Shown: positions 5,432 to 51,730 of the stretch, piece by piece
Layout of the letters: every line of letters starts with the position of its first letter
Position numbering within the stretch: position 1 is the first letter of the stretch
NCBI GenBank assembly: GCA_036172245.1
Contig: JAYWIR010000091.1
Span: forward strand, 186,001-250,000
DNA: 64,000 nt
Source: Raillietiella orientalis
Taxonomy: Eukaryota
Direction: 5' to 3'
Notes under the pieces: model-generated
Databases searched by the model: none
What the model was told of the DNA's origin: nothing
Seen by the model: the letters and a program-made list of their open reading frames with translations, nothing else
Program-made: the position numbers and the translations under genes

Positions 5432-7581
5432 GTTTTTCACAAGGGTGAGCCGGGGCTTTTATTATTAAAATTTTCGCAATAACAAAAATTTCATAATAAA
5501 GTCTTATATTTTTATTCAATTGTTTTTCTTTTTAGGACATTTAGAAATTCACGGTTCCTCTGTGGCACTTGTTCTTACCGACCCGGAGGCCGATATGGTC
5601 GATCGCACTGAAGCAAAGAAAAAAAAAACAAAAATAAAAGAAAAAAAGAAAAACTCCTGGAGGACAATGTTTTTGGGGAAGCGGAGGGAGGGAACGAATC
5701 ACGGTACGCTGTGAGAAGGCCTTTGCATCCGGTCACGGATGCAGACGAGTGCTGTCAAATAGTTCTGAAGTCAACGCCAACGGCAGGCCTTCTCCAAAGA
5801 GATAGCTGCCCAGTGGATGACATTCCGACTTTTCCTATCTACCCTTGACGCGGTCCACTTGTCGAGGATCCCGCGTATGCAACAGAGCACTGCTAGCCAC
5901 CCGGAAGCTGGCAAGGCGTCCTGCGCTAGGAGGCGTTGAAATAAAGTTTTCGTGTCGCCGACCGGAATGTTCAGGAGCGACGAAAAGTCGGTCCCACATC
6001 TCCCGGAGAGCGACACACTCTAGAATCAGGTGAGGGAAGGTTTCTTGTTCCCCGCACTCTGTACACTGGGCATACACACTTTCCGATGTCCAGTGACACA
6101 GGCGTGCTCTGCTTAAAAGTGCCCAATGGAGCAGAAACAACGCCGTCCCCTGCCACTGCAGGGGAAGGGTGCCGCTGTCCCAAGACGCTGGCTGCCACTT
6201 CACCTCCTCCGGAGGTATACCGAGCAGCGCGCTTCAGCGTAAAAGTCCGTTCATCGGGACACTCGGGGTACTAGCGTCCGCTAGTTCCCTCGGCGTCCAC
6301 GCCTTCAGTGATTTTTTCCTGCCTCCGATGAGGCAGAACACTTCCCACGATGCCTGTTGGTTGCTATCCCGAACTTCCCTGAGGAAGGGCAGCACTGAAG
6401 CAAGGGGGGTGAAGGAAGCTTACAGAATTTTCCGTGGGTTGGAAACGATCTTTTGGAGTGGCTGACCAGCGTGCCTCCCTCTGCGGAGGCAGGAGAAGTC
6501 CTCATTGCTGATGCCATTGATCTTCACCCATGCGGATACGGACAACTGAAGCAGGTAGTCCAGTCCGCTGGGATGCAGGAGATCCAAGAGTTGTCTCTCA
6601 TCAGAGCAATCAAATCCCGCAGCTGATATCCGCATTGGTTCAGGCTGCGTTCGTGGACTACTAGGATTGTGGTCAATCCGAAGCAGCCGGTTGCCCTGTG
6701 AGCGAGGAGTCTTGAAGGTGCACACCAGGGTGCGATGCAATACATTGTTAAAAATGCAAGTTTTCTAAATAACATCTGTCGCTACATGAGCTCCAACGTC
6801 AGGAGACCAAGTCCACCGTCCCTGCGTGGAGCGCACAAGTCTTTGAGCCGGACGCAACGCCTCCGGTTGCCTTAGAGGGCTTTCCGTATAAGGCCCCTAG
6901 TCCGTGTCCGAATTTATTACGGAGTAGGGCACACAAAAAGTAGGGGCGAAGGAGGGGGGGCGCGAAAGCGTTTCACACGGCGTCCCGTTCCTGCAAGTAA
7001 AACTTGCCGTCCCGGAACGGACCCATCGCCAATTGCACCTTTTGGGGACAGATCAGGCTTCTGCAGAGCAGAAGTCCTCCGAGGGAACGCTAAGGTACTT
7101 GATATACCCGCCCGTATGGATCCCCAAGCGAATCCAGTCCGACCGTCCAGCCCGCGTCGAATCCGTTAATAGTAACAACGACTTCGTCCTTGTTTCCTCG
7201 ATGCCTGTCACGCGGTGCAGCAACCCGAAGAAATCCTTGAGCGCCGATGCCGGTCTCGACCAGGGAAGCAGGAGCAGAAGGTCTTCGGCATAAGCCGACA
7301 CGGCAGGCGTGCCGGGGCACGAGCTCGGAAAGGTTGCCAAAGTCTCACTGTATGCAATCAGCAAGAACTCAAAGTAGATGCTGAAGAGCAGGAGGGTGCG
7401 GCTGTCAACCTGCCTAATGCCGCGACGAACCGGCACGCCAAACACGTGGCTGCGCTGAAATTGATATTCATAAAAGCGAAGCGCCAGCAGGAGCGAAGGT
7501 AGGACAGGGAGACGGCCGGCAATCCCAAGCGTGACAGAAGCTTCAAAAGCACTTCCTGGTCGACGCAGTCGAAAGCCTACG
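5432..7581 (-). mobile_element. Family D copy 1: 3' half from RT KAFD to the 3' terminus
   Basis: KAFDCVDQEVLL, GIRQVDS, AYAEDL, CTECGEQETFPHLILEC; terminus AATAAAAGCCCCGGCTCACCCTTGTG-AAAAA; colinear with 33851-36003. Confidence 0.9.
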
Positions 7582-10280
7582 CCTCCCGAGCGGGATTTCT
7601 CACGAATCCTGCTTCCGAAAGGCGCTTATGCGATCAAGGAAGAGGAAAAAAAGTCACTCGACGAGTCTTTCACGATGGGCGAGATCATCTCGGCCATCGG
7701 AAAGCTCAAGATGCGAAAGGCTCCAGAGAGGACGGCCTGTCCGCGGAGTTTTATCAAACTTTCACGGCTGAGCCAACTCCCTGGTACATCAACTCACCTT
7801 GCTGATACGCGAGACAGGTGACGTTCCCGCCTCGTGTCGTTCGGCAAAGGTGCGGCTTCTCCCTAAGGGAGGAGATCTGAGGAGCATGAACAACTGGCGT
7901 CCCATCACAATAGTGAATGCGGATGCCAAGTTGATAGCTAAGGTTTGGGGTTAGCGTTTGGGACGGGTTGCAAACGCCTTCATCAGCCCGGAACAGACGT
8001 ATGTTGTTCCGGGGCGAAGCATGGAGGCGAACCTGTTCCACGCTTCCACCTGGCTAGAGCTCCAACACGAAAGGGCTTGATGCGCACCGGGAATTCCGGT
8101 GAGTCCGTCAGTCATGCGACGGATGGTCGGATGGGGGAGGGAGCAATTGCGGTCGCTGTCGACTTGCGTAAAGCATTCGCCAGCGTCGACCAGAATCTCC
8201 TGCTGGAGCTTTTGGAACGCTTGGGATTCCCGGCCTCATTATTGGCCTATCTGCGCTCTAGCTGGCGCGATGCGCTAATCAACGTTACTTTCAGCGGGCA
8301 TACTGTTCACGGCGTGCCGGTGCAACGTGGGATCCGGCAAGGAGACAGCCTGAGACCCTTGCTCTTGAGTACCTACTTTGAGTTGGTACTGAAAGCGTAC
8401 AGGGAAACTCTGGCGCACCTGCCACATGAATGCGCCGGAACGCCTGCGGTTTAAGCATATGCGGACGACCTACTGCTACTGCTCCCTATGTCCACCCCGG
8501 CTTCGGCGGTCGAGAAGTTCTTCGACCTGCTGAATCGAGGAACCGGGCTTACGGTGAACATGGCGAAGTCGTCCGTGATGCCAGTTGGTGCGGCGTGGGC
8601 AGGGCAGCAGGACTGGGTCCGTTTGGGGATCCCCACGGTGAGGTACTTCAAGTACCTTGGTGTGCCGTTGTGGGACTACTCCCCTGCGGAAGCGTGGTCC
8701 GGCTGCCTTCAAAAAGTAGAGACGGCTATCGGCCCGTTCCGAGGCGGCAGGTTTTTCCTGCCTGAACGGGCCGCGGTTTGGAACATGTTCGAGGCTTCTC
8801 TCCTCCGTTCCCTGCTTTTTGTTTGCCCCTCCACAGAGAGGATCAAAAAGCGGACGAAGGACCTCCTCCGTATCGCCCTTTGGGGCAACAAGAGGTCCCG
8901 AGTCCGCTTGAAGGAGTTGTGCGCTCCGCGTCGGGACGGTGGTCTCGGCCTCCTGACATTGGAGCGGCTGGAACTGCAGCTCCAGTTCCGGATTTTGGCA
9001 CTTGTGCCGGAGTTGTGGTGCACCTGTTGGTGCGTCACTGCACGTCTCCTCCTTCAGCAAGCCACCTGCAATCCGGGACTTACGTCGTTTCTTGCACTCC
9101 ATCGAAGCCGCATCAACCGAATTAGGCTTCAGCTACGGAGGGTGGCTGCGCTGGCAAGGAAAAATCAAGGATGGAGCACCTGTCTCCCCGCGAACGGTTG
9201 TGCCTGGTTGCAGGAAACCGTTCGTTCGTGGGGACAGTTCGGCATGCAAACCTCCCATCAGGAACGAAGGTTCCTGTTTGGGTGTTACAGAAGTTGCACG
9301 CTCCGTGAGATCCTGGAGGATCCTAAGTAGAGAGCGGGGTCAGGAGGAACTTCCCTCGCTGCTGCGCTGGACTTCCTAGTGGAACAACAGGACAGCGATG
9401 TTGAGGCGAAGTGGGAGGTTACAATATAAATCTCCGGGAAGGAGAAGAAGCAGAGAGAGTGGAAGACGGGCCAGCTAACTGATGCAGCGACCCCGAGTAC
9501 GCCTCCTAATGGACATCTGCGCTGGGTAGCGCTGCTGGATGTTCCGATTGAACATCTGAAGGGGCCCCCGTTTCTTATGAACACTTCCATCCTCCCCCTA
9601 AAATGGTAAGAGTCGGCATTCCTGTTGCAGGACTGGGGACTCCTCTGCAACGCCCGTCGACACCACTGGACCTGGGGAGCGGTGGATCCCAATTGTGTAA
9701 GGTGCGGGGAACGGGATTCCCTCCCCCACCTCCTAGTGGATTGTGTTGCCCTTCGGCCCCTTTGGTTCCGCTTTGCCGCGGCCATCGGTATCCCTTGCAG
9801 CAACCCCAGGGACGCACTAAAAGCCTTCTTCGTTGCCGACGCCCTGCGGCCAGCGTCCTCGATAGCAGCCTTGTGCTGCTTTCGTGGGATCGTCGCCGCC
9901 TGGAGCACGGCGACGGGAGGACCTAGCGATATTGACGCCATCTAGGGCGCCTCCCAATTCCTGAGGAGGGCGTCGCGATGGCGCCACCTGGATGTTCATT
10001 ACAAACAAGAGCTTGCCAGCATCCTGAGAGGGATGATGCGTCCCCAGCAGCAACAGTGATCTCTTCCCGTTCCCTCCCACCCTTTGTTTTTTTTTTTTGT
10101 TTAGTTTTATTGTTTTTCTTCTTTCCCCTGCTGCCTTGGAGGACCGTACCGGTCTGGAAACCGGTAAATTGGCAGGCACCGTGGTTCTTAGCTTCTCGCT
10201 GGAGCATTGCCACAGCCATTAATAATTTGTTTACAAAGTTTATTTTTTTAATAAACGACCCGGAGAAATCCGGGTGAAAA
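7582..10280 (+). mobile_element. Family A copy 0: 5'-truncated (ORF2 RT to 3' end), antisense in the KAFD codons of D1
   Basis: NWRPITIVNAD, DLRKAFASVD, GIRQGDSL, AYADDL, CVRCGERDSLPHLLVDC; flanked by TCGAAAGCCTACG (7569-7581) and TCGAAAGCTTTACG (10281-10294). Confidence 0.9.
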
Positions 10281-10294
10281 TCGAAAGCTTTACG

Positions 10295-11734
10295 TTAGCT
10301 AGAGCGGACGTGTTTCCTCGGTGCTTCTCGTGCCAAGAACCGTCCCTAGGTGTAGGCTTCGTGTGTGGTGGTGGTCGATCAGGCAGCAATGCCTGACACG
10401 ACCACCAGTGCGTGTCAGCGGGCGGTGGCAACGTCGCCTCCTGAAGAAATGGAGTGCCAGGTGGCGGCGGCAACGACGCCTCTAGAGAAGGTGGAGTGCC
10501 AGAAGGCGGCAGCAACGTTGCCTCCAGTGGAGAAGGAGGTGGAAGCGTCCGCCCCCACAAACCCGGTCCCCGCTCCAACGGGAGCGTGGAGCGCCGTCGT
10601 GTCGGAGCCATCGCCTGCAGCCGCGGCGGAACTATCTGCCTATGTCGAAGAGGGGTATAACCGATCACCATTCTACAAGGTATTAAATTTTGTATTCTTC
10701 TGAGTATGCGCGCGCCTTTTAGAAGGGGATGCGCGCTCTCGATGTTAAAGAGGAGCAGCTATGCGCTGTGACCATTCGTAGATAGGGGCAGGACGTAGAG
10801 GTGATCTGCAAACATGCAGATCTGGCCCAACGTCTGCTTACAACCCCCGTGGTAATGGGGACACGCAGACTCATTCCTGTTACGGCGGACCACAGTATGG
10901 TGGTCCACCTTTTAGGAGTTACCGCGCGGGTGCGGAAAGAAGAGTTACGCGCCGCGTTGGGAAAAGAAGGCACGGTCCATGCAATATGGAACAATCCTAG
11001 TCCTTTCGAGGACTATACCACAGTTTAGTGCGGCCTTACGGCTACCGTTGTAACCGTTCGGGAGGGCTCTACCTTTCCCCACAAATTGGTAGTCGGCGGA
11101 GAAAGCGTCGACCTCTGGTACGTGGGGAAGCCCAAATACTGTGGCTTCTGCAACACGTCGGGACACCTCAAAAGGAGGTGCCCCAACGTACAGTGCCTAA
11201 TATGCGGGACAATGGGCCACACGAAGGAAGTGTGTCCACAATCCGCTGTGGGCGTGTATTCCGCGAGGAACCTAAAAAAACGCACGCGGCTGCTACAGAA
11301 AAAACTGCCGTTGAAGGCTGCCGCTCAAGCTGTGCCACCCACTCCCGTGGTCCAGGCCTCAGCCGACACTCCGGCAACGAATGCCGAAAAGATCGACAAA
11401 ATCGGTCAGGTGTCGGAATGGCTAGAAGTCACAGCGAAAAAGAAAAAAAAGTCGATGAAAGAACGACGAATGGAGAACAAGCTCGCCTACCAAAATAAAA
11501 AACAGCAGGTTAGCGAGAATATAAAAGAATGCAGGCTCGTCGTGGAACGCGCCCCGCCGAACACCGCAAGGTAGAAATCGCTGCTACCGACGAGCAACCC
11601 ACTGTTGAAAATGTCAACAGCGTGGGTAGCAAACCGGCGGAAGCGTTCGTCATCGAGACCGTGATCGATGACGCCGCCTTCGAGCGTGCGGCGGAGGATC
11701 CGCCTGCATCGTTGCAGCCAGCCCCCTCCAAGGC
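10295..11734 (+). mobile_element. Family A copy 1: 5' end and ORF1 (ATG 10389), 3' part lost
   Basis: Starts TTAGCTAGAGCGGACGTG; ORF1 with CGFCNTSGHLKRRC and CLICGTMGHTKEVC knuckles; colinear with 31835-33850. Confidence 0.9.
10420..10540 (+). repeat. 39-bp (13-aa) coding tandem repeat in family A ORF1 N-terminus; ~3 copies here, ~4 at 33580-33725
   Basis: AVATSPPEEMECQ / VAAATTPLEKVECQ / KAAATLPPVEKEV. Confidence 0.85.
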
Positions 11735-13495: not shown

Positions 13496-14048
13496 CAGCA
13501 CCTGACCCCCCTGCTCCACCTAGCGTCCCGCCCCAGCAGGTGGCGGACGCCGCACTGCCATCTTCCCAGGAGTAACACCTGGGCTCGCCAGTCGCCGTCG
13601 GATTCGCGCGGCCTGTTAAAATGTCAACGGGCTGCGCGACAACGGTAACAGGCGAGATACAGCCGACACCCTGCGGGAGTTCGACCTGGCCCTGTTGCAG
13701 GAGATCCACGTGATCACCGCGGCAGACGTCCAGGAGATCGAGACGATCGCGGGGGGTCGGCTGTACTGGCAACGCGGCATCCGCACCACCTGCGGGGTCG
13801 CGTTCTTCGTGAAGCCGGCCATCGACGCTGCCGTGAAGGGCGTGCGCTTCGATGGCGACGGTCGGGTCGGTCAGCTGACTCTCGGCTGGTCCGACTTGAT
13901 CGATCTGATCGTCACGAATGTGTACGCCTTAACCAATCAAAAGGGATACAGCAACCGTACCCGGCTGCTTGAATCCCTGAAGCGCGACTGGCTGGCGAAC
14001 ACGAGCGTGCGGAAAGCTCACCTGATACCGGGAGATTTCAATCGAGTG

Positions 14049-14056
14049 CGGACGTG
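14049..14056 (+). promoter_or_regulatory. CGGACGTG 5'-terminal motif (DPE-like putative internal Pol II promoter element); representative copy
   Basis: Also at 10305-10312 (+) and, on minus, ~29020 (TGGACGTG), ~33833, ~37854, ~43767, ~46146, ~55577; matches DPE consensus RGWYV. Confidence 0.65.
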
Positions 14057-14121
14057 TTTTTCTTCGCTCTCGTCTCCGTGCTTTCATCCGCTTCATCTTG
14101 GCGTCGTACATTTTGACGACG

Positions 14122-16038
14122 ATGTCGACCCAACTTGAAGCTACTGAAGTTGGAGGAACAGCATCCGGATATGCAATCGCGGAACCGACGGCCGCCTCCA
14201 CTTCGTCTTTCTCGCCAATGCAGAGGAGTTTTGCTGACGTTGCTGCCACAGCAGCCGTCAAAGGGAAACCACTCGACGAGTCGGAGTTGCGGGCATACGT
14301 AGCCCAAGGCTATAGACCTGCTCTCCGATATAAGGTGAGTGGTTTTCTTTCTGCGCGCGACGGGAATGAGTTCAACGATGAACGGACCCGTGATGACGTG
14401 CGGGAGGAGGACCCTCTCGCCATTATGCCCGTAAAAGACATGGGCTATTTCAAAGTGCGTTGCAAAGACGCTGCACTTGTGCAACGCTTGCTGCGCACAC
14501 CGTTGTCGATCCGTGGCCAGAAGGTCTTCCCGACCGCCATGGACGACTCATTTGTGGCGGAGATTTTCGACATCGTGTCGGAAATCTCCGATATTGATAT
14601 TCGGAACGCTTTGCGAAATTCGCCACGGTCCATGCGCTGTGGAGGGTGCGTAGCAACCTCAAGGACTTCCCGTCCATACACAGCGGAGTCGCTGGAGTCC
14701 CGCTTACAATGCCTGATCGCCGTCGGCTGCACAGCAAATTACAGATGAAAGACACGGTCGTTCACCTGTGGTTCGTGGGCAAAGAAAGAACGTGCGAGCA
14801 ATGCTGGAAGGAGGGGCATTGTATGGATGAATGTCTCTCTGGAAAAAGCCGTTATTGCAAACTATCCGGGCACCAATTGTAAAATTGCCCGGATCTTTTG
14901 CAAAAAAAGGCAGCCGCGGAGCTCCATCTTAAAAAACAAAGCGCGGATAAAAAGAAAAAATTTGCGAAAAACCTGGAGACCCCACGGCAGAAATTCCTCA
15001 AAAACGCGAGGCGGAATATCGCCACAAAGTAGCAGGAAACCTCGCACGCGAAGCCCTGCGCGCCCCCTCTCGCGGCAGGTAAGCCGCAAAAGAAAGAGTG
15101 CGGAGAATCCGGGGCAATGGTAAGTCTCCCAAGGCGCAATAGCTGTCCTTCCCAAGCACGCCCGGCTCTTTCAGAGTTCGAGCAACCGGCGGGGACGTCA
15201 ATGGACAACGGCGGTAAGGACACTTCCAGTACCGTTAGATCCAATCCTTCACCTCCTGCAGTGACTGAGAAGCGCAAATCGGGTAAGAAGGGTTGTGCAG
15301 TGTCGACTTCGAAAGTCGGCAAAAAAGAATCCGCGTCGCGATCCAACACCGCGAAAGCGGAGAAAAATCTCACGCTGTCGCAGTCGGAGAGCAAGCTCTC
15401 GACTGGCGCGGATGCCATGCCAACGAAGGGATTAAAAGCCCTTCCGAAAGCAGCGTCCATGACGAGCGTGTCGGAGCCATCGAAAGTGCTCCCGTTTAAA
15501 GACACGGATGGCTTGAAAGATGGCAATGGAGCAGAATCTCCATATACGGCGCCACGCGAAGTGAGGAACCGTAATGAAGTAAAGAAGACTTCAGCAAAGC
15601 TCCCTCGTGCAACTGCGCGTGAGCACGCTGAGAACGCGCGCGCCGGGAAAGCAGCCGTCACCAAAAGCGATGGAGACGTAAAAATACAACAGGACAGCTG
15701 TCAATCCAGCAGAACCTGTCACTACTTCCCGGAAGGCCGAAACTCGATCGAACATGCGTCTGTCGAATTCCGAAATGGATTCCGTCCCGATCACCGAGAC
15801 GAGGACAACTCGTTCGAAAGCGTGTGCGCGCCGATCAAAAGTAGGCAGCCAGGCAACGCGAGCCGCGAAGCCACGCGAAGTCTCCACGAAACCCGACGGG
15901 GTTAAGCCTGGCGTGGATGCATTACATGCATGCAGCACGACAGAGGACGGTGGCGAACGTCCCCTCCAGCCAGTCGTGCAGCTCGCCGTCTGCTTGCCGG
16001 ATAAAGCGAGCAAAAAGCCGCCGCCTTCCCAGCAGTAA
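14122..16038 (+). pseudogene. B1 ORF1 (gag-like, two CCHC knuckles, long low-complexity tail), frameshifted
   Basis: MSTQLEATEVGG...CEQCWKEGHCMDEC...YCKLSGHQL...PVVQLAVCLPDKASKKPPPSQQ* spread over several frames. Confidence 0.9.
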
Positions 16039-19000
16039 TGCGGGGAATGGCGTCTTCTCGTCGTCTGTCCGTAACGTGTTGAAACGTGAACGGACTACAG
16101 AACGATGAGAAGAGACGATTAGTAGCCAACGCCCTGCGCCCCTTCGACCTCGCGCTCCTGCAGGAGATTCACGTAATCTCCGACGAGCAGAGAGCCGAAA
16201 TCGAGGAGCGCGCAGGCGAAACGCTACATTGGCGGTGCGACGGCGCACACACGTGCGGCGTCGCGTTCCTCGTAAGAGGAAAAATGGCGGAAGCGGTGCG
16301 TAGTGTTCGTTTCTATGACGACGGACGGATAGGCCAGCTTGTCATAAAGTGGTCCGATTCCATCGATCTCGTCGTTACGAACGTCTACGCGCCGAGTGGA
16401 TCTCGCTACCTCGGAGAAAGAGTAGCTTTCTTTGGTGAGGTGCAGAGTTACTGGCTCAAAAACTTTGGTTTCCAAGTGGCGCACCTCGTTGCTGGGGACT
16501 TCAACGTCCGCCTGCTCTCCGACGATTGGAGCCGCCCGAAAGAGCGCGCGCTGCCCATCGAGATGTGCGCGTCCGTGCACGCCGCCAACTTGATGGTCAG
16601 CAAACCTGGAATGGAAAGATCGCTCGATCACGTTTTCCTCGATGAAAACCTGCATTCGCGTGTGGGAGGAGAGTTAGATTGTTGACTAGGCTTTCTGACC
16701 ACCACAGGTTGGAGTTTGAGATCCTTCCGCCAGGCAGGGTACCTCAGTTGCAAAACTGAAGGATGCAGGCGGATTGGCTTAGCCAACCGGTGGCTGCGGA
16801 GCATCTACGTGGATACCTCCGAGGCTTTGCCATTCAAGAACTTGCGGACTGGGACGATCTCAAAAGATCTGTCCGCGAGTTCTGCTGCCAATTCCCCTTG
16901 CACCGGCTTCCACGCGGTTTTGGAGAGGGTGTGGCCAACAGTAGAGACTTTCTGCAGGCCCGCACGTGTTCGAGACGCGCCTATGTCGGGCGTCTGGCAG
17001 AGTACAAGGCGAGGTCCGAGCACCAGGTCTGGCAGTCCGGAGCAGCATGCCTGTTGGACGACAAGGGCCAGGAATGTTCGGCCCCAGCCGAAGTACGCCG
17101 CATTGTGAGACGCTATCACTCCTCTCTGTACGCGGAATCCCCGACGAAGGATATTCTTTCTGAGATACTCCTGTCTCAGGATGCTCGTGTTGTCGGCGAA
17201 GAGGAACGCGAACGTCTCGACGAGCCCTTCACGGCGGATGAATTTTCGTGCGCAATCGTTCGGCTGAAGAGACGAAAGGCGCCAGGCGAGGATGGGCTCC
17301 CTGCAGAGTTTTATCAGTGCTTTGCAGTGGAGCTCATTCCCTTGTTGCTGAAACTCGCGACGCTGATGAGTGAATCCGGGAATGTCCCTGATTCCTCCCG
17401 CTCAGCGAAGGTGCGTCTCATGCCGAAAGGCGTAGACTTGCGTCAACTTAACAACTGGCGTCCGATCACCTTGTTGAACTCGGACCTCAAGTTGTTTTCC
17501 AAGCTGTGGGTCGAGCGGTTAGGAAGTTTCGCGGAATCTGTGGTGAGCCCGCAACAAACCTGCGCGGTTCCGGGACGATCCCTGGAGGCGAACGTCATTT
17601 TCGCGCGTACATGGATGCAGCTGCAGGAAGTTGTGGCGCAGCAAAGCCAGGCTGCTGCGAAAGTCACTGCCGCAGGCAAGAAGAACAGGCGCCGACGGCA
17701 GGAGGGAACGCCAGGTGCCTTGTCGGTGGCAGTCGATCTCCTGAAGGCGTTCGACTGCGTAAACCAGAAGCTGCTTTTGGAGCTTATGGAACGCCTTAAG
17801 TTCCCGGTGCAACTCCTGCTGTATTTGCGCGCGAGCTGGCGCCACGCGCTAACCTGCATTACTTTCAGCGGCTGCCGCGTGTATGGTATTCCCGTTCGTA
17901 GCGGCATCCGTCAGGGCGACAGCTTAAGCCCGTTGCTCTTCAGCATCTTCTTTGGGTTGGCGCTAAGAGCATACAGGCTGATGCTGTCTTACTTGCCAAG
18001 CTCCTGCCCGGGAACGCCTGCCGTGGCCGCGTACACTAATAACCTGCTTCTTCTGCTCCCCATGTCCACCCCGGCGTCCAGTGTCGAGGATTTCTTCGAC
18101 CTGATTCGTCGGGGAGCGGGCGTGAGCGTGAACAGAGAGAAGAGCGTGAACGTTCCTGTGGGTACGTCGTCGGAGGGGCACTCCGACTGCATCCGCCTGG
18201 GGATCCCTACTGGCGGGTACTTTGAGTACCTTGGCGTTCCGTTGGGCTTTCGGCGCAGCCGAAGCGTGGGCGGACTGTCTTCAGAAAGCAGAGTTGGCCA
18301 TCAGCCCGTTCTTTAACGGCAAGTTTACCTTGAAAGAACGGGCGACTATTTGGAACACCATCGTGGCCCCCCTCCTCCGTCCCCTGTTCTTTGTTTTGGA
18401 CCCCCCCTATGCGGCAAAACAGCGGGCTAAGCGCCTGCTCAGGAACGCTCACTGGGGTCCAGCGAGATCCAGGATCCGCCTTAAAGATTTCTTAGCTCCG
18501 CGTCTGGATGCTGGTTTGGGTATCTTGACAATGGAGCGAATCGGACTGCAGGTGCAGTTCCGACTGCTGGCACTGTGTGCCCAGCAATGGACATCCCCCC
18601 TGTGTGTGCAAGCCCGCATTCTCCTGCGGAGATGCGCCGGCAGCGGAGGATTTCTCTCGCTTTTGCCGGGTACTCAATACAGGAAGCGGGGTTTCGGGTT
18701 TCCATTGCGGCAGTTGACCGCACTTCTGGAAGCACACCCTTGGATGTCCTGCCGCCCAATGAACTTTGAAGCTTGGCGGCAGGAGTCTGTTGAATCCTGG
18801 GCGGCGTTCCAAGGAATACGCCCTGAAGATCTTCGCCCCCTGCGCCAATTTTTTCCACGATCCTTGGAAGAAGTACTGCAGGACGAGGTGAAGTTTTCTA
18901 CCCTTGCTGCCACGCCTCTTGCCGCAGCGCTGTCTGCCCTCAGGGCAAAAAACGACAGTTACCAACCGGCGAGGTGGGAGGTTTCCTGCACGATAGCGGG

Positions 19001-19628
19001 AAGAACCAAACTCCTTGGCACCTGGAAGACAAGTGAGTTGGCGGACGCCGCCACTCTTCGTGTTACTGCAAAGGGACTCCTCCGGTGGACAGAAGAACTT
19101 GCTGTCACCCCCGAAGAACTTGTAGTCCCTCCACAGTGTATGGACAGTTCGCTGCTCCCCCTTGCTTGGAAACAAGCCGTTCTGCTTTTCGTTCACTGGG
19201 GTTTTCAGTGCAACGAGCGTTGGCATCGTGACTCCGGGGGACTTGCGTCTGAGAATTGCGTTCGGTGCGGATCGACGGAGTCGATTCCGCACCTACTTCT
19301 GGACTGCGGTGTCCTACAAGGACTGTTGCGTAGGCTGGCAACAGCACGAATGCATCCCGTGGACACCGCAAGAGACTTGCTGCGACGATTCTTCACGCCG
19401 AGCGGGCTTTCACTAAGCGCAAGGATTGCAACCATCGGTTGCATACGCGCGATAGTTTCCGTCCGCCAGGCGTTGGTAATCAACGGACGGCACCAAGAGG
19501 TAATCAGCAAAGCATCCTTCTACATGGGAGCATCCGCTAGATGGCCTCATTTGACAGAGGAGACAAAGAGTAATCTCGCCGCAATACACCGCCGGTTGAC
19601 ACACCCTCATCAGCGGACAACCCGGTGA
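16038..19628 (+). pseudogene. B1 ORF2 (APE endonuclease - RT - CCHC), few disablements; YADD altered to YTNN
   Basis: ORFs 16086..16685, 16763..18316, 18222..19628: QEIH, NVYAP, GDFN, LDH, KAPGEDGLP, NWRPITLLNSD, DLLKAFD, QGDSLSP, CVRCGSTESIPHLLLDC. Confidence 0.95.
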
Positions 19629-19911
19629 TCATTGCTCTACCCTCCATAAACTAAATATGTATTTTCTTTTTACACCCGCATCCCCATAGGCTCCGGAACA
19701 TGTTAGGTGCTCATCGTATAAATCCCCGTGAGTACGGAGCCTAACCAAAAACCCGTTACCCTTCGCTCCAGTTTTTGATTTTTGTTTGTTTCCCCTCATT
19801 CCTCCCGCGCTGCGAGCGGTTTGTTTACCAGGCCTGCGTGCCGGTAATTTTTCTATGTTCTCTGTCGTTCTGTTGGTTAAGGACATTGTCCCTGACCAGT
19901 TTATTATTATT

Positions 19912-19941
19912 AATAAACGCCCCGGCGTGACCGGGTGATAA
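19912..19941 (+). terminator. 3'-terminal AATAAA plus CCCGG..CCGGG stem-loop; representative copy
   Basis: Recurs at the end of every 3'-intact element, in several lineages with otherwise dissimilar 3' UTRs. Confidence 0.75.
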
Positions 19942-22900
19942 ATTTCAATGTCCGCCTGCTAACAGGTGAGCCGGAAACACATGTGAACGCGATGAACGGG
20001 TTGTGCGCCACGATGCGTGAGCGCAACTTGTTCGCGTGTGAGAGAGGAATGGTCCGCAGCATCGACCACGTCTTCCTGGACGCTGACCTGTGTTCACGAG
20101 TCGGCAAACGGGGGAGGGTTGCGTCGACGTTGTCGTTCCATTCCCGGTTAATTTTCGAGATGCGGCCTCGCGACAAAGGACCGCCATCCAGGGATTGGCG
20201 TCTGCCGGGGGACTGGACGCGACTCTCAGGTGCGAAGGAAAACCTTCGCGAATACCTGAGAGGCGTCACGCTCCGGAATCTCCAGGACTGGGACCTTTTT
20301 AAAGAATCGGTCCGCGAGTTCTGTGAGAAGTTCCCCCTGGATCGCCTGCCCCCCGGATTCAACAAGGGTGCTCGCAACCATTGGGCCTATTTACAGGCTG
20401 GTAGGTACGCGAGAACCTTTAATGTTCGTCGCCTGGCCGAGTACCGCGCCGGGGCCGAACGCCAAGCCTGGCAATCCGGGTCGGCCAGCTTGCTGGACGA
20501 CCAAGGCCGGGAATGTTCGTCCCCGGCGTCGGTACGGCATCTCGTGCGGAGTTTCTATTCCTCCCTTTACGCCAGGGAGCCCCCGGATCGAAACGCCTCT
20601 CGGCGCTTGCTTCCGGATGGCGCCCCGGCAATAGGGGAGGAGGAGATGAAAAGCCTCGAGGAGCCTTTTACCACCGGCGAAATTCTCGCCGGTATCAAAA
20701 GGCTCAAGAGGCGTTAAGCTCTAGGGGAAGACGGCTTGCCCGCGGAGTTCTTTCAGAGCTTCGCGGAAGAGCTGGCACCCCTGCTGCTTAAGTTGATCAG
20801 GCTGATCCGAGACGAAGGCGATGTTCCCGCCTCGTTTCGGTCAGCCTGAGTGAGGCTCCTTTTGAAAGGGGGAGACCTCAGGGATTTAAAGAACTGGCGT
20901 CCGATCACGATCGTGAATACGGACGGCAAGTTGATAGCAGGGCTATGGGCTTCGCGTCTGGGGCAGGTGGCAGAATCGGTAATTAGCCCGGAGCAGACTA
21001 ATGCTGTTCCCGGGCGAAGTATGGATGCCAACCTCTTCTTCGCAAGCACATGGGTGCACTTGCAGGGAAGAGAAAAGAAAGGGATAGGGAAAGTCGGCAA
21101 CCCCACATTGGGGCCGCAAGCCGGGCTGGGAAGGGACCCCCGGGCGGGGAAGGGGGCCCTAGCGCTCGCAGTCGATCTCCACAAGGCGTTCGACTTTGTA
21201 GACAAGGAACTCCTCTTGGAGCTCCTGGGTCGCATGGGCTTTCCACCCTCCCTGATTTCCTACCTGCGCTCTTGCTGGCGGAATGCGATAATTACGGTCT
21301 CTTTCAGCGGTCACAAGGTGCATGACGTGCCGGTGCGGCGGGGCATTAAGCAGGGAGATAGCCTCAGCCCCCTGCTATTCAGCACCTACTTTGATTTGGT
21401 GCTGAGAGCGTACAGGGTGACTCTAGCCCCATTGCCGAGCTCGTGCCCCAGCACGCCCGCCGTTACAGCGTACGCCGACGATCTTCTGCTCTTGTTGCCA
21501 ATGTCCACCCCGGCAAAGGCGGTCGGAGACTTCTTCGATCTGCTCAGTCGCAGGAACTGACTGCAGGTTAACAAGGCGATGTCGTCGGTTGTGCCAATAG
21601 GAGCGGCGTTGGCAGGGCAGCAGGACTGGGTCCGTGATGGGATCCCCACGGCGAGGTGCTTCAAGTACCTTGGTGTGCCGTTGGGGGACTACTCCCCTGC
21701 GGAAGCGTGGTCCAGCTGCCTCCAAAAAGTCGAGACGGCGATCGGCCCGTTCCTGGAAAGCAAGTTTCACTTGCCGGAACGGGCCGCGGTTTGGAACGCC
21801 TTCGCGGCCCCCATCCTCCGCCCTTTGCTTTTTGTTTGCCCCTTCACCGTGGAATCCAAGAAGAGGACGAAGGACCTCCTCCGTATCGCCCTTTGGGGCA
21901 AGGGGAGGCCCCGAGTCTCACTGAAGGACTTGTGCGCTGCGCGTTGGGACGGCGGTCTTATCCTCCTGACGCTGGAGCGCGTGGAGAAGCAGCTGCGGTG
22001 GCGAACCCTCGCCATCGAAGCGAAGATGTGGAGCACCCCTTGGTGCACTCCGGCCCGCCTTCTGGCCAGGCATGTGTCCCGGTGCGATGGACTCGCGTCT
22101 TTTTTTTCTGAGCCGTGGCCCGAAGATGCAAAGATGCGGCCTACTGCTCGGGCGCATGGCAACATTGGCCAAGGAGAACAGCTGGATGGTTTGCTGCCCA
22201 GCCAACTCCCCCGCCTGGCTGGAGGAGAATATTGGAACGTGGGCAGTAGTTAACCAGAGAAGCCACGAGACGTGGAATCGTCTCCCATGCAGCCCCTACG
22301 CCCGCTGCACGCTGCGAAATCTCCTGGAGAGTCCAGCAAGATGCACGTGGGCAGAGACGACCTGCCTAGCTACGGCGCTGCCCTTCCTCAGGAGGCACTT
22401 CACAGCAGACGGACGCCAAGGTGGCAAGTCTCCTGCTGCATCGAGGGACGCGAAAAATTGATCAGCGGCTGGACAACAGGAGAACTAGCCGACGCCACGA
22501 CCCAGAGCGTCCAGCCGCGAGGATTATTAAGATGGGACGAGCTGCTCGCTATCCCCAGGGATGAGCTGAAGTGGCCCCCGGTGATGAAAGAATCCAGGAT
22601 CCTGCCCCTTAAGTGGCAAGAGTCGGCGTTGCTTCTGTTGCACTGGGGTCTACCCTGCAACGCGCGCCGCTTCCACTGCACGAGGGGAGCTGTGGATCCC
22701 GCGTGTGCCAGGTGCGGGGAGCGGGAGTCGCTTCCCCACCTTATTGTGGATTGTGCTGCCCTCCGACCCCTTTGGGAACGGTTTGGGACGACCCTCGGGC
22801 TACCTACAGGCAGCACACCCAGAGACGTTCTTCGGCCCCTCTTCGTGAAGGACGCACTGCAGCCAGCCGCAGCCATCGCAGCCTTGTGCTGCATCCGAGG

Positions 22901-23283
22901 TATCGTGGCGGCATGGAGCGACGCCAACAACGAAGGAGTGGGTCCACAGGGGAAAGATGTCATCCCGTATGCCCAACGCTTCTTGCGGAGAGCTGCCGGA
23001 TGGCCCCAACTGGGGAATATGCAGACTGACCTCGAGGGCTTCGTTCGACGAATGGGCCCTCCCCACAGCGACCAGTGATCCCTTCCCTGCCCTCCAACTT
23101 CTTTTTGTTTGTTTCTTGTTATTTTTCTCTTTGTCTTATCCCCATCTGCCTTCCCTGTCGGAGAGTGCGACGCCGGGCTGCGTTCCGTTGTCCCGACAGG
23201 TCGCGTGTTTACGGCCGTGGTGGGGCCTCGTACCACGCATATAGAGTTTACAAATAAACGCCCCGGGCGTACCCGGGTGACAA

Positions 23284-29033: not shown

Positions 29034-29046
29034 CCAGGTTTCGGCG

Positions 29047-31834: not shown

Positions 31835-33850
31835 ATCTCCTGCGCTTGTTCTGCAGAGACCACATGGATCTCCTGCCGCAGCGCAACGTCGAACGATCCT
31901 AGAATGGAGGCCATGTCTCGTCTCCTGCCGGCGTCTGTCATGCCGTTCACGTTCCAAACGGCGATGCGCAGACGACGGCGGGAGGAGATTCCCGGCATTA
32001 CTGCCGGGAAGACGACGGTGTGGGGGAACCCGCCTCTTCCGAGGCGGGTGAGATGACCATTAGGGTTTCAGCCTCCTCAGGCACCTTGGGTACCTTTCCG
32101 GCTCCAATCCCCTCCATCTCCTCCGTGTCAGTGCGTGGTGGTCTCTCTTGTGACGATTCCCGGGATTCTCCCACGCTCATGGCACCCTCGCAGTCGGAAG
32201 TGCTCTCCACGACTTCGACCTGGAGAGGGGATTTCCAGTGTTTGCTGGACTTCCTTCCAGCCTTCCGGCGGGGTGCCGCGGAGATGGAAACTTGGTTTCC
32301 GGTCTGCGCTTCGGGGTCGGAAGTTACCGACTCCTCGGTGGAGGCCGAACGCCTCACTGCCTGTTTGCCAGCCTTGGAGGGGTCTGGCTGCAACGCTGCA
32401 GGCAGCTTCTCCGCCGCACGCTCGAAGGCGGCGTCATCGATCACGGTCTCGATGACGGACTCTTCCGCCGGTTCCATCCCCACGCTGTTGACATTTTCAA
32501 CAGTGGGTTGCTCGTCGGTAGCAGCGATTTCTACCTTGCGGCGTTCGGCGGGGACGCGTTCCAGGACGACGCTGCATTCTTTTAAATTCTCGCTAACCTG
32601 CTGTTTTTTATTTTGGTAGGCGAGCTTTTTTTCGATTCGTCGTTCTTTCTTCGACTTTTTTTTTTTTTTCGCTGACTTCTTGCCACTCCAACACCTGACC
32701 GCTTTTGTCAATCTTTTCGGCATTCGTTGCCGGGGTGTCGGCTGAGGCCTGGACCACGAGAGTGGGTGGCACAGCTTGAGCGGCAGCCTTCGCCGTCAGT
32801 TTTTTCTGAAGCAGCCGCGCGCGTTTTTTTAGGTTCCTCGCGGAAACCACGCGCACAGCGGATTGTGGACACACTTCCTTCGTGTGGCCCATTGTCCTGC
32901 ATACCAGGCACTGTACGTCGGGGTACCTCCTTTTGACGTGTCCCGACGTGTTGCAGAAGCCACAGTATTTGGGCTTCCCCACGTATCAGAGGTCGACGCT
33001 TTCTCCAACGACCACCAGTTTGTGGGGAAGTGTAGAGCTTTCCCGAACGGTTACACGGGCAGCCGTGAGTCCGCACTGAGCTATGGTATAGTCCTGGAAA
33101 GGACTAGGCTTGGTCCATACTGCATGGACCGTGCCTTCTTTTTTCAACGCGGCGCTTAACTGTTCTTTCCGCATCCGCGCGGTAACTCCTAAAAGGTGGA
33201 CCACCATACTGTGGTCCGCCGTAACGGGAAGAAGCCTGCGTGTCCCCATTACCACGGGGGTTTTAAGCAGACGTTGGGCCAGATCTGTATGTTTGCAGAT
33301 CACCTCTACGTACTGCCCCCCGCTACGAATGGTCATAGCGCAGAGCTCCTCTTCTTTAACATCGAGAGCGCGCATCCCCTTCGAAAATGCGCGCGCACAC
33401 TCAGCAGAATACAAATTTCCTACCTTGTAGAATAGTGATGGGTTATACGCCTCTTCCACATAGGCAGATAATTCTGCCGCGGCTGCAGGCGATGGCGCCG
33501 ACACGACGGCGCTCCACGCCCGCGCTGCAGCAGGGACCGGTTTTGTGGGGGCGGACGCCCTCACCTCCTTCGCCACTCAAGGCGACGTTGCCGCCGCCTC
33601 CTGGCACTCCACCTTCTCTAGAGGCGACGTTGCCGCCGCCACGTGGCACTCCACCTTCTCTAGAGGCGACGTTGCCGCCGCCACGTGGCACTCCATTTCT
33701 TCAGGAGGCGACGTTGCCACTGCCCTCTGACACGTAGTGGTGGTCGTGTCAGGCATTGCTGCCTGATCGACCACCTCAACACACGAAGCCTACACCTAGG
33801 GACGGTTCCCGGCACGAGGAGCACCGAGGAAACACGTCCGCTCTAGCCGA
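31835..33850 (-). mobile_element. Family A copy 2: 5' end, ORF1 (33756-31998) and APE start
   Basis: 5' TCGGCTAGAGCGGACGTG; CGFCNTSGH knuckle; TAATG then MPGISSRRRLRIAVWNVNG...QEIH. Confidence 0.92.
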
Positions 33851-36003
33851 CGTAAAGCTTTCGACTGCGTCGAACAGGAGCTCCTTCTTTAGCTAATGGA
33901 ACGCTTGGGATTTCCGCCCGTCTTCCTGGGCTACCTGCGTTCTTGCTGGCGCTTCGCGTTCATCAATATTAATTTTAGCGGCCGGCACGTGTTCGACGTG
34001 CCGCTTCGTCGTGGCATCCGGCAGGGTGACAGCCTCAGGCCCCTGCTCTTCAGCATCTACTTTGAATTGGTGCTGAGAGCATACAGGGAGACTTTGGCAA
34101 CCCTGCCGAGCTCGTGTCCCGGCACGCCAGCCGTTTCGGCCTATGCCGACGATCTTGTGCTCCTGCTTCCCGGGTCCACCCCGGCATCGGCGCTCGAGGA
34201 TTTCTGCGTGTTGCTATACCGTGGGATAGGCCTCCAGGTGAACAGGACGAAGTAGTCGTTGCTTTTCACCGACTCGACGAGGGCCAGACGATCGGAATGG
34301 ATCCGCATGGGGATCCCCACGTGCAGGTGCATCAAGTACCTTGGCGTTCCGTTGGGGGACTTCTGCTCTGCAGAAGCCTGGTCCGACCGTCTACAAAAGG
34401 TGGAGCTGGCGATCGGCCCGTTCCGGGACGGCAAGTTCCACTTGCAGGAACAAGCCACGGTATGGAACGCTTTCGCGGCCCCTCTCCTTCGCCCCCTACT
34501 TTCTGTGTGCCCTACCCTTTATCGAATTAGGACACGAGCTAGGGGCCTTATACGGAAAGCCCTCTGGGGCAACCGTAAGCCTCGCGTCCGGCTCAAAGAC
34601 TTGTGCGCTTCACGCATGGACGGTGGACTTGGTCTCCTGACGTTGGAGCGCATGGAGCGACAGCTCCAATTTAGAAAACTTGCCCTTGTGTCAAAGTTTT
34701 GGACAGCACCCTGGTGTGCTCCAGCAAGACTCCTTGCTCACAGGGCAACCGGCTGCTTCGGATTGACTTCAATCCTGGTAGCCAACGAACGCAGGCTGAA
34801 CCATTGTGGTTATCAGCTGCGGGATTTGGTTGATCTGATGAGAGACAACCCTTGGATCTCCTGCATCCCAGCGGACTGGACTACCTGGCTTCAGGAATCC
34901 GTATCCGCATGGGCGAAGATCAATGGCACAAGCAATGAGGTCTTCTCCTAGCTCCGCAGAGGGAGGCACGCTGGTCAGCCACTCCAGGAGATCGTTTCCA
35001 TCCCACGGAAACTTCTGTAAGCTTCCTTCACCCCCCTTGCCCCTGTGCTGCCTTCCCTCAGGGAAGTTCGGGACAGCCACCAACAGGCATCGTGGGAAGT
35101 GTCCTGCCTAATCGGAGGCACTAAAAAATCACGGAAGGCGTGGACGCCGAGGGAACTAGAGGACGCTAGTACCCCGAGTGTCCCGCAGAACGGACTTTTA
35201 CGCTAAGGCGCGCTGCTCAGTACACCCCCGGAGGAGGTGAAGTGGCCCCCAGCGTCATGCGACAACGGCACCCTTCCCCTGCAGTGGCAGGAGACGGCGT
35301 TGCTTCTGCTTCACTGGGGACTTTTAAGCAGAGCACGCCTGTCTCTTCGGACATCAAGGAATGTGGATGCTAGTTGTGCAGAGTGCGGAAAAAGGGAGAG
35401 CTTCCCTTACTTGATTCTGGAGTGTGTTGCCCTCCACGAAATTTGGGAGACACTCTCGTCGATCCTCAACATTCCGGAGGGTCAACTGAAAAATCTATTC
35501 AGACGCCTTCTAACGCGAGACGGCTTGCCAGCCTCCGGGAGCGTAGCACTGCTTTGCTGCATACGCGGTATCCTGGAGAAGTGGACCGCGTCTAGGAGAG
35601 GAAGGACCAGCCGGAATGCCATCCACTGGGCAGCGATCTCCTTGGAGAAAGTGTGCCGTTGGCGCTGACTTCAAAATCATTTGCCAGCACTTGTTGGCAT
35701 CCGAAACCGGATGCAAAGGCCGCTTCACGGCGCACCGTGATCCCCCCCTCCCTCCCCCTTTCCAAAAAACTTTGACTTCAGGACGTTTTTCTTTTTTTGT
35801 TTTTGTTTTCTTCAATTTTTCCCGTCCCGGCGACAGTGAAAGACCTTATCGACCTCCGGGTCGGTAAGGACAAGTGCTACTGAACTTCTGAACTAAACCT
35901 CTGACGTCGTAAAAAAAAAAATCTTATCAACATATACTTTGTTACAAAATCCTGTAATTTCAAAATTTTAGCAATAAAAGCCTTGTCTTACCAGGGTGAA
36001 AAA
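33851..36003 (+). mobile_element. Family D copy 2: 3' half from RT KAFD to terminus
   Basis: RKAFDCVEQELL, GIRQGDSL, AYADDL, CAECGKRESFPYLILEC; terminus AATAAAAGCCTTGTCTTACCAGGGTG-AAAAA. Confidence 0.92.
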
Positions 36004-37867: not shown

Positions 37868-37875
37868 ATTGAAAT

Positions 37876-43780: not shown

Positions 43781-46164
43781 ATTGAAATCTCCCGCTATCA
43801 GGTGATTTTTTCGCACATTGGTATCTGCCAGCCAGTCGCGCTTCAGGGTTTCCAGCAGCCTGGTGCGGTCGCGGTAACCCTGTTTGCCGCTGGGGCCATA
43901 CACGTTTGTGACGATTAGGTCGTTCGAGTCGGACCAGCTGAGAATCAGCTGACCGATCCGACCGTCGTCATCAAACCGCACGCCCTTTACGGCAGCGTCG
44001 ATGGCCGGCTTCACGAAAAACGCGACCCCGCAGGTGTTGCGGGGGCGGCATCGCCAATACAGCCGACCCCCCGCGAACTTCTCGATCTCCTAGGCGTCTG
44101 CCGCGGTGATCACGTGGATCTCCTGCAGCAGCGCCAGGTCGAGCTGACGCAGGGTGTCGGCCGTATGTCGCCTGTTGCCGTCGTCGCGCATCCCGTTGAC
44201 GTTCCAACAGGCCGCGCGAATCCGACGGCGACTGGCGAGCCCAGGTGTTAGTCCTGGGAAAACGGCGATGCGGCGTCCGCCACCTGCTGGGGCGGGACAC
44301 TAGGTGGAGGGGGAGGGGAGACAGGTACTGAAGGCACCTGTTCCTCCTCCTGCATCGGTGCCGGCGCGTCGGGCGGATCACCTGCAGGTGGAGTCGCGCC
44401 TACCTGTTCGCCTTCCTCCATGGGTTCGGGCTGCTCAGGTTTCGCGACTGCAGGGAGGACTTAACCCCCCTGCTCTCTCTCCTCCATGGGGGTGGCCGAC
44501 TCGACGGCTTCCGGGCGTGGGTATTGCCCCTCCGGGATTCCCACGCTGCCGCTTCCTTCCGGTTTCTCCTCCTCGCTGGTGGAGGGGAGGCGCCTCCTGG
44601 GTTTCTGGGACTTGCGTCCCGACTTCCTGGGGGGTGCCTCCGAGGAGGATGATCTGCTTCCGGCCCCCAGGTCGCACTCACCTGCGGGGGCCTTCTTTGT
44701 CGGAGCCGACCTGCGTACGCCCTTGCGCGACGGGGTTTCGAGCTCGGCGAGCGTTGCTGCGAGCTCCTCCGCCGCTTTGTCGAAGGCCGCGTCTTCGCCA
44801 GCGGCGACCGTTGCCGCGGGCTGCCCCGCGACTTTATCGAGCGCGGCGTCCTGGCTGTCGGCGCGCTAGTCTCGCGTCTCACCCTCTAAACGTAGATTGG
44901 GCACGTCCACGCGAGTATTCATCCCGTCTGCATCAGCTGTTCCGTGAACATTGCCGCGGGCGGACTCGGCAGGAACGGCTAAGCGTTCCAGTGCCACCGA
45001 GCATTCGTAGAGCTGCTTTTTTTTGAAAGCGGCGCAACTTTTTTCTTGTTGCCGGCAGTTTTCTTCTCCGACATTTCTTCTGGCATTAATTTCTTTTTTG
45101 TTTCTTTTTTGTCCTGAACCAGCTGCCAACCCTCCTCCATTTCCGCGTTCACATGAGCTATTTGCTCCGACGTCTGTACGGGAGGAAGGGAGGCTGGCAG
45201 TTGGGAACGGCCATTTTCGCTAGGTGGTCTTTCTACCAGCTTTCCACGTTTTCCCTGCGCCTTTTTGGCAGCAGGGGGCACCGGGGTGGGGCGCTTGGGG
45301 CTCACGCGTGAACGTGACCCTTTTTGCCGCATTTGACACACAATGTTAGGGTACCTTTCTCGTAGATGCCCTACTGCATTGCAGTAGCCACAAAATTGGC
45401 GTTTCCCCACGTACCAGAGGTCCACCGCTTCTTGGCAGACCTCCAGCTTGTGGGGAAGCGCACCACTCTCTTTTACTGTGATACGCGCCGCAGCTTGACC
45501 TCCGAAAAGGCTATTGTAGCCTTGGAAAATCGTGGACTTCGGCCACAACGCGTGCACTTCTCCGTGCTTTTGTAGCTGTTTTCGAACCTCTGACCTTGTC
45601 ATACGACTGGAGATCCCAGTGAGATGGACCACCACCGAGCGGTCCATCGTTATCGGCAAGATCTTCCGACCATCAACGATCAGCGGGTCGGTGATCAGAT
45701 GTCGGGCCAAGGTGATATCCTTGCATACCACCTTGACCCGCTGCCCGCCGCTGAGGACGCAGAGGCCGTCGACATCTTTTTCAAAAATATTGGCGTTCTG
45801 CAGCGCCTTCGTAAAGGCTCGTGCAGTTCGCCCATCGAAAAGGTTGCCTACCTTGTAGACGAGCGAGGGATTATACCCCGCTTTCTTGTAGGCTTCCATC
45901 TCGGCCATGGCTTTCACGCTAGGCGCGGCCACCATGGCGCTCCATGACCTCGGCGTCGCCGGGGACGATTCCGGGGCGGATGCCCCTGATCCAGTAGGCT
46001 GTGGGGACGAACAAGCCTCCATCACGCCTACATCCATCGCGGTGTCCTCTGGCAACGCTGCCATCGGACATTGACGATGTGCACGCACAAATCACTCAAT
46101 AAGAAAAAACACTCGCTTTGCCACGCAGGCGGAGCGCAGGAAAAGCACGTCCGCTCTCCACAGC
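43781..46164 (-). mobile_element. Family C copy 2: 5' end, ORF1 (46064-44248) and APE up to GDFN
   Basis: 5' CTGTGGAGAGCGGACGTG; MAALPEDTAMDVG...CGYCNAVGH; APE WNVNG, QEIH, NVYGP, LIAGDFN. Confidence 0.92.
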
Positions 46165-51715: not shown

Positions 51716-51730
51716 CGCAGGTTTGCCGCA

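Follow-up and report, generated by a model that had tools for sequence, protein, structure and literature searches.

In a 64,000-nt window of Raillietiella orientalis contig JAYWIR010000091.1, one lineage of long interspersed nuclear elements (LINEs), here called A, is joined again and again to other LINEs at a single place, the codons of motif A in their reverse transcriptase (RT), and always in antisense. This recurrence is real and lies far beyond chance. Lineage A is probably a sequence-specific, L1-like LINE of the apurinic/apyrimidinic endonuclease (APE) type, whose target is the motif A DNA, (R)KAFD, of other L1-like lineages. The window is the whole stretch that was analysed, and all counts, trees and alignments given here concern copies within it. 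From about 2570 to 56041 it consists of an unbroken nest of non-long-terminal-repeat retrotransposons, with LINE facing LINE at every junction examined. An earlier note on this DNA had described four junctions of A sequence with motif A codons, and all four are present in the sequence at the coordinates then given; its reading of them is largely borne out. The parts that meet there are the following (ORF, open reading frame; UTR, untranslated region).

5433..7581, minus strand: D1, a host LINE, from its 3' end (reverse complement ..GTGAAAAA, at about 5433) to RT motif A.
7569..7581, plus strand: left target copy TCGAAAGCCTACG; its first 8 nt belong to D1 with certainty, its last 5 to either D1 or A0 (microhomology).
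7582..10280, plus strand: A0, a 5'-truncated LINE with the RT from just upstream of the fingers, the C-terminal region, the 3' UTR and the 3' end AATAAACGACCCGGAGAAATCCGGGTGAAAA.
10281..10294, plus strand: right target copy TCGAAAGCTTTACG, the antisense of CGT AAA GCT TTC GA.
10295..11734, plus strand: A1, with the full-length lineage A 5' end TTAGCTAGAGCGGACGTGTTTCC, the 5' UTR and ORF1; cut at 11734.
31836..33850, minus strand: A2, with the full-length A 5' end, all of ORF1 and the opening ~40 codons of ORF2.
33851..36003, plus strand: D2, a host LINE, from CGTAAAGCTTTCGAC (RKAFD) to its 3' end ..GGGTGAAAAA.
51731..52410, minus strand: A3, 5'-truncated at A1 position 10923; its identity to A1 and A2 is about 91 %.
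52411..54469, plus strand: E, the second host family, from GCGTTCGAC (AFD) to its 3' end.

At the first junction, the sequence ...GCAG TCGAAAGCCTACG (7569-7581) leads from D1 into A0, which starts at 7582. A0 ends in ...CCGGGTGAAAA (10280) and is followed by TCGAAAGCTTTACG (10281-10294) and then directly by the 5' end of A1, TTAGCTAGAGCGGACGTG. The identical 14-mer is found on the minus strand at 33851-33864, between D2 and the 5' end of A2. At the fourth junction (GTCGAACGC/GCGGATG, 52411-52413) E meets A3, which starts at the equivalent of A1 position 10923 and has about 3 nt of microhomology with its host (CGC, 52411-52413). In sense, the target 14-mer reads CGT AAA GCT TTC GA and encodes R K A F D. 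D1 is broken past the R(K)AFD codons and retains a zf-RVT Pfam match in the ORF at 5838-6233.

That 'KAFD' is RT motif A, as the earlier note had it, follows from the alignment of K2, the copy with the most intact RT ORF in the window (710 aa), with human L1 ORF2p: KLFD of K2 falls on EKAFD of L1 (VDLHKLFDCVNQ with SIDAEKAFDKIQQ). The K2 RT matches human L1 ORF2p with an E value of 4e-37 and R2 proteins with about 1e-11 in a PDB search; together with Exo_endo_phos and RVT_1 matches in many stop-to-stop ORFs (zf-RVT in two) this assigns the elements to the L1-like family. A protein search with the K2 RT gave nine matches with a top identity of 56 %, and a search of the ESM Atlas gave generic RVT_1 clusters only. 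The antisense orientation of the insertions is equally borne out, since in D1, D2 and E alike it is the antisense strand that continues into A sequence, at the same codons.

Ten RT copies that span the motif A position were aligned (X, D1, A0, K1, G1, G2, D2, K2, G3 and E). Motif A is intact in seven of them and broken in D1, D2 and E, all of which lie beside A sequence; the alignment puts the three breaks in the same (R)KAFD codons, and the tblastn matches of D2 and E to the K2 RT both begin at query residue 329. The position in the host is thus fixed, while the 5' side of A varies, two copies being full-length and two truncated at different places. The 64 kb contain two exact matches to the 14-mer, each beside an A 5' end, where chance would yield ~0.0005. 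In an element of ~5.8 kb, the probability that two more junctions would lie no further than ~6 bp from the first and share its orientation is about 1e-6. With up to three mismatches allowed, the 14-mer finds seven matches where 6.5 are expected, so that loose matches are at chance level; four of the seven fall on homologous codons, those for motif A in X, A0, G2 and G3. The nearest unoccupied look-alikes of the target, with two mismatches each, are the motif A codons of X (2768-2781) and A0 (8167-8180), which encode RKSFDSVD and RKAFASVD, respectively. The A0 codons (CGTAAAGCATTCGCC) hence read KAFA instead of KAFD.

Since duplication at the DNA level occurs in the window, the independence of these events was tested directly. 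D1 and D2 are 82.1 % identical over 2139 aligned nt, with a Kimura two-parameter (K2P) distance of 0.205 and windowed identities of 0.71-0.78 in the 3' UTR and 0.81-0.91 in the coding part. A1 and A2 are 91.4 % identical (K2P 0.091), uniformly along their length, and A1, A2 and A3 are mutually equidistant at about 9 %. The homology between D1 and D2 stops exactly at the D 3' terminus. The flanks beyond are unrelated: D1 gives way to an H-type endonuclease in sense and D2 to antisense K3. This divergence contrast and the unrelated flanks indicate that D1 and D2 are separate, older insertions, each hit later by a younger A. A single ancestral D/A junction could have been copied at the DNA level, by inverted or segmental duplication, or as a chimeric RNA made of antisense A and of D from KAFD to its 3' end, with A0 and the E/A3 junction coinciding by chance. 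D1-A1 and A2-D2 do face each other as an inverted pair, a 3-kb tandem duplication made at the DNA level lies nearby, and A1 and A2 have a TGA and a frame break in ORF1 in common. However, copying of one junction does not explain why divergence is twice as high in the D parts as in the A parts, with the D divergence concentrated in the UTR, nor why homology ends at the very terminus of D. Moreover, E belongs to another family, 62-64 % identical to D, and meets A at a different A position but in the same codons, and A0 is bracketed by repeats of the site. We regard such copying as very unlikely. The earlier claim of independent events therefore holds on three grounds, the divergence contrast, the unrelated D 3' flanks and the different host and A breakpoint of E; the sequences point to at least three independent events, and most likely four.

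The target-site duplication of about 14 bp proposed in the earlier note fares less evenly. A0 is bracketed by direct repeats of the target of 13 and 14 nt, the left one with CCTACG and the right one with CTTTACG. Since the A0-like copy Y shows CCTACG at the homologous place, the left repeat may in part belong to A0; the duplication is secure for 8 nt and probable for 14. The truncated A0 may have joined 8 nt into the site by microhomology, like A3 in E. The full-length A1 and A2 both join after 14 nt of the site. The duplication and the precise A-type 3' junction are both seen at A0, the only element in the window with a 3' junction at a motif A site.

Whether A0 belongs to lineage A has to be read from its surroundings, and A0 and the A copies have no overlapping sequence in the window. 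A0 is truncated between endonuclease and RT; visible in the A copies are the 5' UTR, ORF1 and, in A2 alone, some 40 endonuclease codons. The RT tree pairs A0 with X (76 % identity); G comes next (75-77 %), and D and the sister lineages E and K are more distant. By their ORF1, both A and the A-like element W lie nearer to H, which forms the 5' part of the G lineage, than to K. Both trees thus agree with A and A0 as one lineage. Tandem position, common target and congruent trees make it likely that A0 is part of lineage A. An attempt to link A to A0 via the elements Y and Z at the start of the window failed, as 1790-2570 matches nothing, and a metagenome scan for the A 5' end gave no matches. 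A sequencing run with 10 % of words in common (80 % likeness) was also tried and set aside: it yielded short diverged contigs only, of 200-450 nt, and its read joints (7573>10213 at depth 2, side 20; 10334>8825) are too weak and confounded by RT cross-matching.

The RT of A0 and the ORF1 of A fit a place among L1-like elements. A0 has an RVT_1 match in the ORF at 7942-8451 (E 4.4e-7; 30.2 bits against a cut-off of 29.6), and its tblastn match to the K2 RT spans query residues 127-684. The ORF1 of A1 encodes an RRM-like region and two CCHC knuckles, and the ORF1 of A is homologous to those of H and K. The endonuclease of A2 starts with LRIAVWNVNG..LRQE and is matched at 31953-31831 by residues 1-41 of the K1 endonuclease (tblastn, E 5e-8); A2 is cut at 31835 by the 3' end of an element called N. 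The endonuclease of lineage A is visible as these ~40 codons only, and full Exo_endo_phos domains are seen in K and H.

Lineages K and H/G, whose like behaviour the earlier note had not recorded, have fixed sites of their own: for K, the GDFN codons of the endonuclease, entered in sense with an 8-bp duplication, and for H/G, the linker between endonuclease and RT, entered in antisense. The copies concerned are these.

14043..19942, plus strand: K1, a complete 5.9-kb LINE in the GDFN codons of the H1 endonuclease, in sense, with both host flanks present.
37875-43781, minus strand: K2, in the GDFN site of H2.
36004-37874, minus strand: K3, in tandem behind the K2 3' end, with ATTTCAAT between them.
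46159..49107, plus strand: G3, the RT and 3' part of an H/G element; GGGGATTCGGCG, at its left edge, lies against the H2 5' end (minus strand).

K1 is flanked by an 8-bp duplication, ATTTCAAT, at 14035-14042 and 19943-19950, and H3 shows the host sequence uninterrupted. K1 and K2 are 94.3 % identical, compared with 85.5 % for the adjoining kilobase of host; the copies being more alike than their host flanks, they are independent hits. A distant K-like element, Z, also sits at the GDFN site, in Y (757-800), with ATTTCAAC. Three of the eight GDFN sites are occupied, all of them GATTTCAA (GAT TTC AA), and four of the five empty ones are GACTTCAA (GAC TTC AA). As for H/G, the 3' ends of G1, G2 and G3 adjoin CGCCGAA(T/A)CC; read in antisense this is GGGGATTCGGCG, which lies in the linker between endonuclease and RT in H-type copies. 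For G3 the neighbouring sequence is CGCCGAAACC, from H4 (minus strand). The same linker site in G3 adjoins the H2 5' end, and the G4 3' end is followed by TCGCCGAAACCTGG and then by the 5' end of H3. The junctions at this site lie at 23283/23284, 26299/26300, 29031-29047, 46147-46170 and 49107/49108. Two of them, G1/H6 and G2/H3, are one event copied at the DNA level, since they lie in a 3-kb direct tandem repeat (20506-23519 and 23518-26535, 85 % identity) that contains the 3' part of a G element and 235 nt of antisense H. The arrangements A0-site-A1, K2-site-K3 and G4-site-H3 are the same kind of tandem, and such tandems are the expected product of a site-specific element that re-enters the duplicated site beside a resident copy.

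The element ends can be read to the base, because the 5' and 3' termini are common to all lineages. A 5' terminal motif, ..GAG(A/T)GCGGACGTG(T/C)TTT, accounts for seven element starts among 25 matches of the regular expression; it begins A1, A2, K1, K2, K3, H2 and H3, each at its own junction. As the motif that opens A1 and A2 also opens K and H elements, 10295 and 33850 are true 5' ends. The 3' end AATAAACG.CCCGG..CCGGGTGA.AA is common to 12 elements, all of which (12/12) finish in ..GGGTGA.AA and lack poly(A), and the 3' junctions are base-exact in four G and three K copies. The 3' hairpin is conserved, with 88 % of cells paired, and its covariation is no higher than in shuffled controls (101/500). 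A metagenome scan with the shared hairpin found eight loci, seven of which are one common non-LINE sequence context; the eighth (L003) showed no similarity to the window by blastn or tblastx.

In the explanation that we favour, a sequence-specific lineage A, the A endonuclease would nick the sense strand of the host after ..AAAGCTTTCGA^C, and the freed 3'-OH would prime reverse transcription at the 3' end of the element RNA, which would carry the hairpin CCCGG..CCGGG and then TGAAAA, without poly(A). The other strand would be cut 14 nt away, after ..AAAGCTTTACG^. Because the core AAAGCTTT is palindromic, one specificity could make both nicks and so give rise to a 14-bp duplication. Full-length cDNAs would then join at the 14-nt position and truncated ones 8-9 nt in, by microhomology. 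A fresh insertion would restore the site on both flanks, and a second copy could land upstream of the first, as the A0-A1 tandem suggests. The LINE island would grow by elements inserting into one another, and the same logic would apply to K and H/G.

A number of observations weigh against this explanation. By tblastn, the window contains no upstream half for D1, D2 or E: 12 hits cover the RT before residue 329, and not one of them breaks off at motif A. For lineage A, both sides of an interrupted host are thus never seen together. The window holds a single A-type 3' junction, that of A0, whose membership of lineage A is likely only. In A1 and A3, ORF1 is cut (at 11734 and at A1 position 11609) and an H-type element comes next, an arrangement that simple nesting of insertions does not account for. 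Elsewhere in the window, six GCTTTCGA 8-mers carry no insertion, and the site in E (GCGTTCGAC) is identical to the unoccupied sites of K1 and G1, so that the sequence of the site alone does not predict occupancy. The tandem duplication at 20506-23519 and 23518-26535 shows that junctions can be copied near by. Finally, a single nested ('onion') history drawn by hand fits 30365-56041 but not the whole, the mirror halves being absent from the window; since nesting is incomplete, deletions, joining of two nicked neighbouring sites or template switching must also have occurred. These complications weaken confidence in the details of the scheme but not in the recurrence of the site.

The missing 5' halves invite the converse view, in which D and E are the inserters, 5'-truncated at motif A by a pause of the RT or at an RNA end, and landed beside A 5' ends. 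In all three hosts, indeed, nothing upstream of motif A is retained, and 5' truncation is common in LINE copies. This would nevertheless require three truncations in the same codon and three landings exactly at an A boundary, be it the full-length end or position 10923. The repeat that flanks A0 would go unexplained, and the 14-mer next to A1 follows the 3' end of A0 rather than lying within D. Insertion of D and E beside A is, accordingly, highly implausible.

The untidy history of the island also bears on whether a sequence-specific endonuclease is needed at all. Repair or recombination among homologous LINEs might give recurrent breakpoints through template switching, capture of cDNA at breaks, or joining by microhomology at AAAGCTTT, a quasi-palindrome that may be fragile. 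The departures from clean nesting speak for it (A1/H1, A3/H4 and the head-to-head pair G4/N at 30365-30382), as does the microhomology at E/A3 and possibly at D1/A0. But the insertion of K1 into H1 is a model case, with host sequence on either side and an 8-bp duplication, each lineage has its own site and orientation, and the 3' junctions of the G and K copies mentioned above are exact to the base. Repair without a specific endonuclease is thus unlikely as the origin of the recurrent site.

Beyond lineage A, it is possible, and we put it forward tentatively, that the island houses a guild of L1-like lineages, the endonuclease of each having been retargeted to a place inside the ORF2 of its rivals, with two of the sites being codons of indispensable catalytic-domain motifs, RT motif A for lineage A and the endonuclease GDFN for lineage K. 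If so, a target of this kind could not mutate away without crippling the host element. The invader would gain a permanent safe harbour, would disable a competitor with every insertion and would drive the growth of the island beside a satellite. The KAFA of A0 (CGTAAAGCATTCGCC) would then be an escape variant of its own target.

Several features of the island touch on these elements. Both A1 and A3 break off within the C-terminal part of ORF1, at points separated by 125 nt in A coordinates; A3 departs from A1 and A2 at A1 position 11609, where the full-length H-type element H4 starts. A near-full-length H-type element follows both A1 and A3 in the same orientation (11609-11776; 51660-51731), with about 40 nt of filler before H1 and a degenerate H site (GCGGCAAACCTG) before H4. 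These cut-offs could be template-switch chimeras or insertions accompanied by deletion. Two 5'-truncated copies, G4 on the minus strand and N on the plus strand, stand head to head and make a local palindrome at 30365-30382; their breaks fall within ~15 nt of the same homologous RT position. At 31835/31836, the N 3' end adjoins the A2 endonuclease in antisense, 8 codons past LRQE, in the region of the LQE motif; it may be another motif-linked site, of which this is one case only. Towards the right end of the island lie two further elements.

54470-55585, minus strand: W, with an ORF1 47-69 % identical to that of A.
55586-56041, plus strand: V, an H/G-like fragment that ends at the start of the satellite.

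The 5' end of the A-like W adjoins ..GGAGCTTCGA of V, another LINE, and this flank, a single case, fits the proposed site and nicking. The satellite itself (56069-59524 and 59574-63981) extends over 8 kb in two blocks of opposite orientation, with units of 276-278 bp; its G+C content is about 40 %, compared with 55-60 % in the LINE island. The ~780 nt between Z and X (1790-2570) have no similarity to the rest of the window, even at E = 10, and are the sole non-LINE stretch to the left of the satellite.

Two ways of accounting for the A and A0 frames gained no support. A 43-nt GT..AG intron in the A ORF1 (10680-10722) would restore the frame; the segment aligns with 14 coding residues of H2 and H4 and is therefore decayed coding sequence. 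A genetic code in which TAA and TAG are sense codons was considered because the A0 frame (7822-10056) is open over 745 codons if read through, with seven TAR, no TGA and no frameshift. Across 13,663 codons, the frames defined by homology contain 33 TAA, 27 TAG and 15 TGA; under a simple mutation model the TGA share would be 27 % (p = 0.16, not significant), and antisense frames lengthen too, leaving this code unsupported.

Should the pattern hold genome-wide, it would represent a clean case of transposon-on-transposon parasitism, in which selection on the victim holds the target in place, and would provide a mechanism for the growth and confinement of LINE islands next to satellites. It would also mean that closely related APE endonucleases read three different long recognition sites. 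Such a set of enzymes would be useful for studying how APE-type LINEs read sequence and for programmable insertion tools.

The known targets of site-specific LINEs are rRNA genes, small RNA genes, telomeric or simple repeats and one DNA transposon, and LINEs that nest in themselves are also known. Tx1L inserts in the Tx1D DNA transposon, R1 in 28S rDNA, and TRAS and SART in telomeric repeats. The elements described here work like Tx1/R1-type LINEs, a likeness of behaviour, the PDB search separating only L1-like from R2-like proteins. In both, copies stand at one defined sequence of a multicopy target, some of them in tandem, and their 5' truncation varies; the likeness probably extends to an APE endonuclease, a precise 3' junction and duplications of fixed length. 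Here, however, the target would be the DNA that codes for a conserved catalytic motif of other LINEs, entered in antisense, and at least three related lineages in one island each have their own site in ORF2. One survey does name 'transposons' among the targets of LINEs and lists Tx1 and R1 as specific clades bearing an APE (PMC4640811).

The Zepp and ZeppL elements of green algae likewise build L1-type islands by insertion into existing copies, with arrays rich in 3' parts, and clusters of ZeppL can have satellite flanks (PMC8226300; bioRxiv 10.1101/2022.06.16.496473). Zepp is described there as one family that nests in itself and ends in poly(A), whereas here several diverged lineages appear to cross-target at defined codons, without poly(A) and with a conserved 3' hairpin; the two are likened by description. 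Similarly, a report on Cnl1 of Cryptococcus describes preferential self-insertion, nested arrays and many 5'-truncated copies (PMC9942834). Cnl1 nests in tandem at subtelomeres, whereas A and H/G enter other lineages in antisense; no telomeric repeat was found in the 64-kb window. A literature search, thin on subscription journals, found no LINE that homes to the catalytic-motif coding sequence of other LINE lineages. Compared with these systems, what is new is a target made of conserved ORF2 motif codons of other lineages, the antisense entry and the presence of at least three lineages with three sites.

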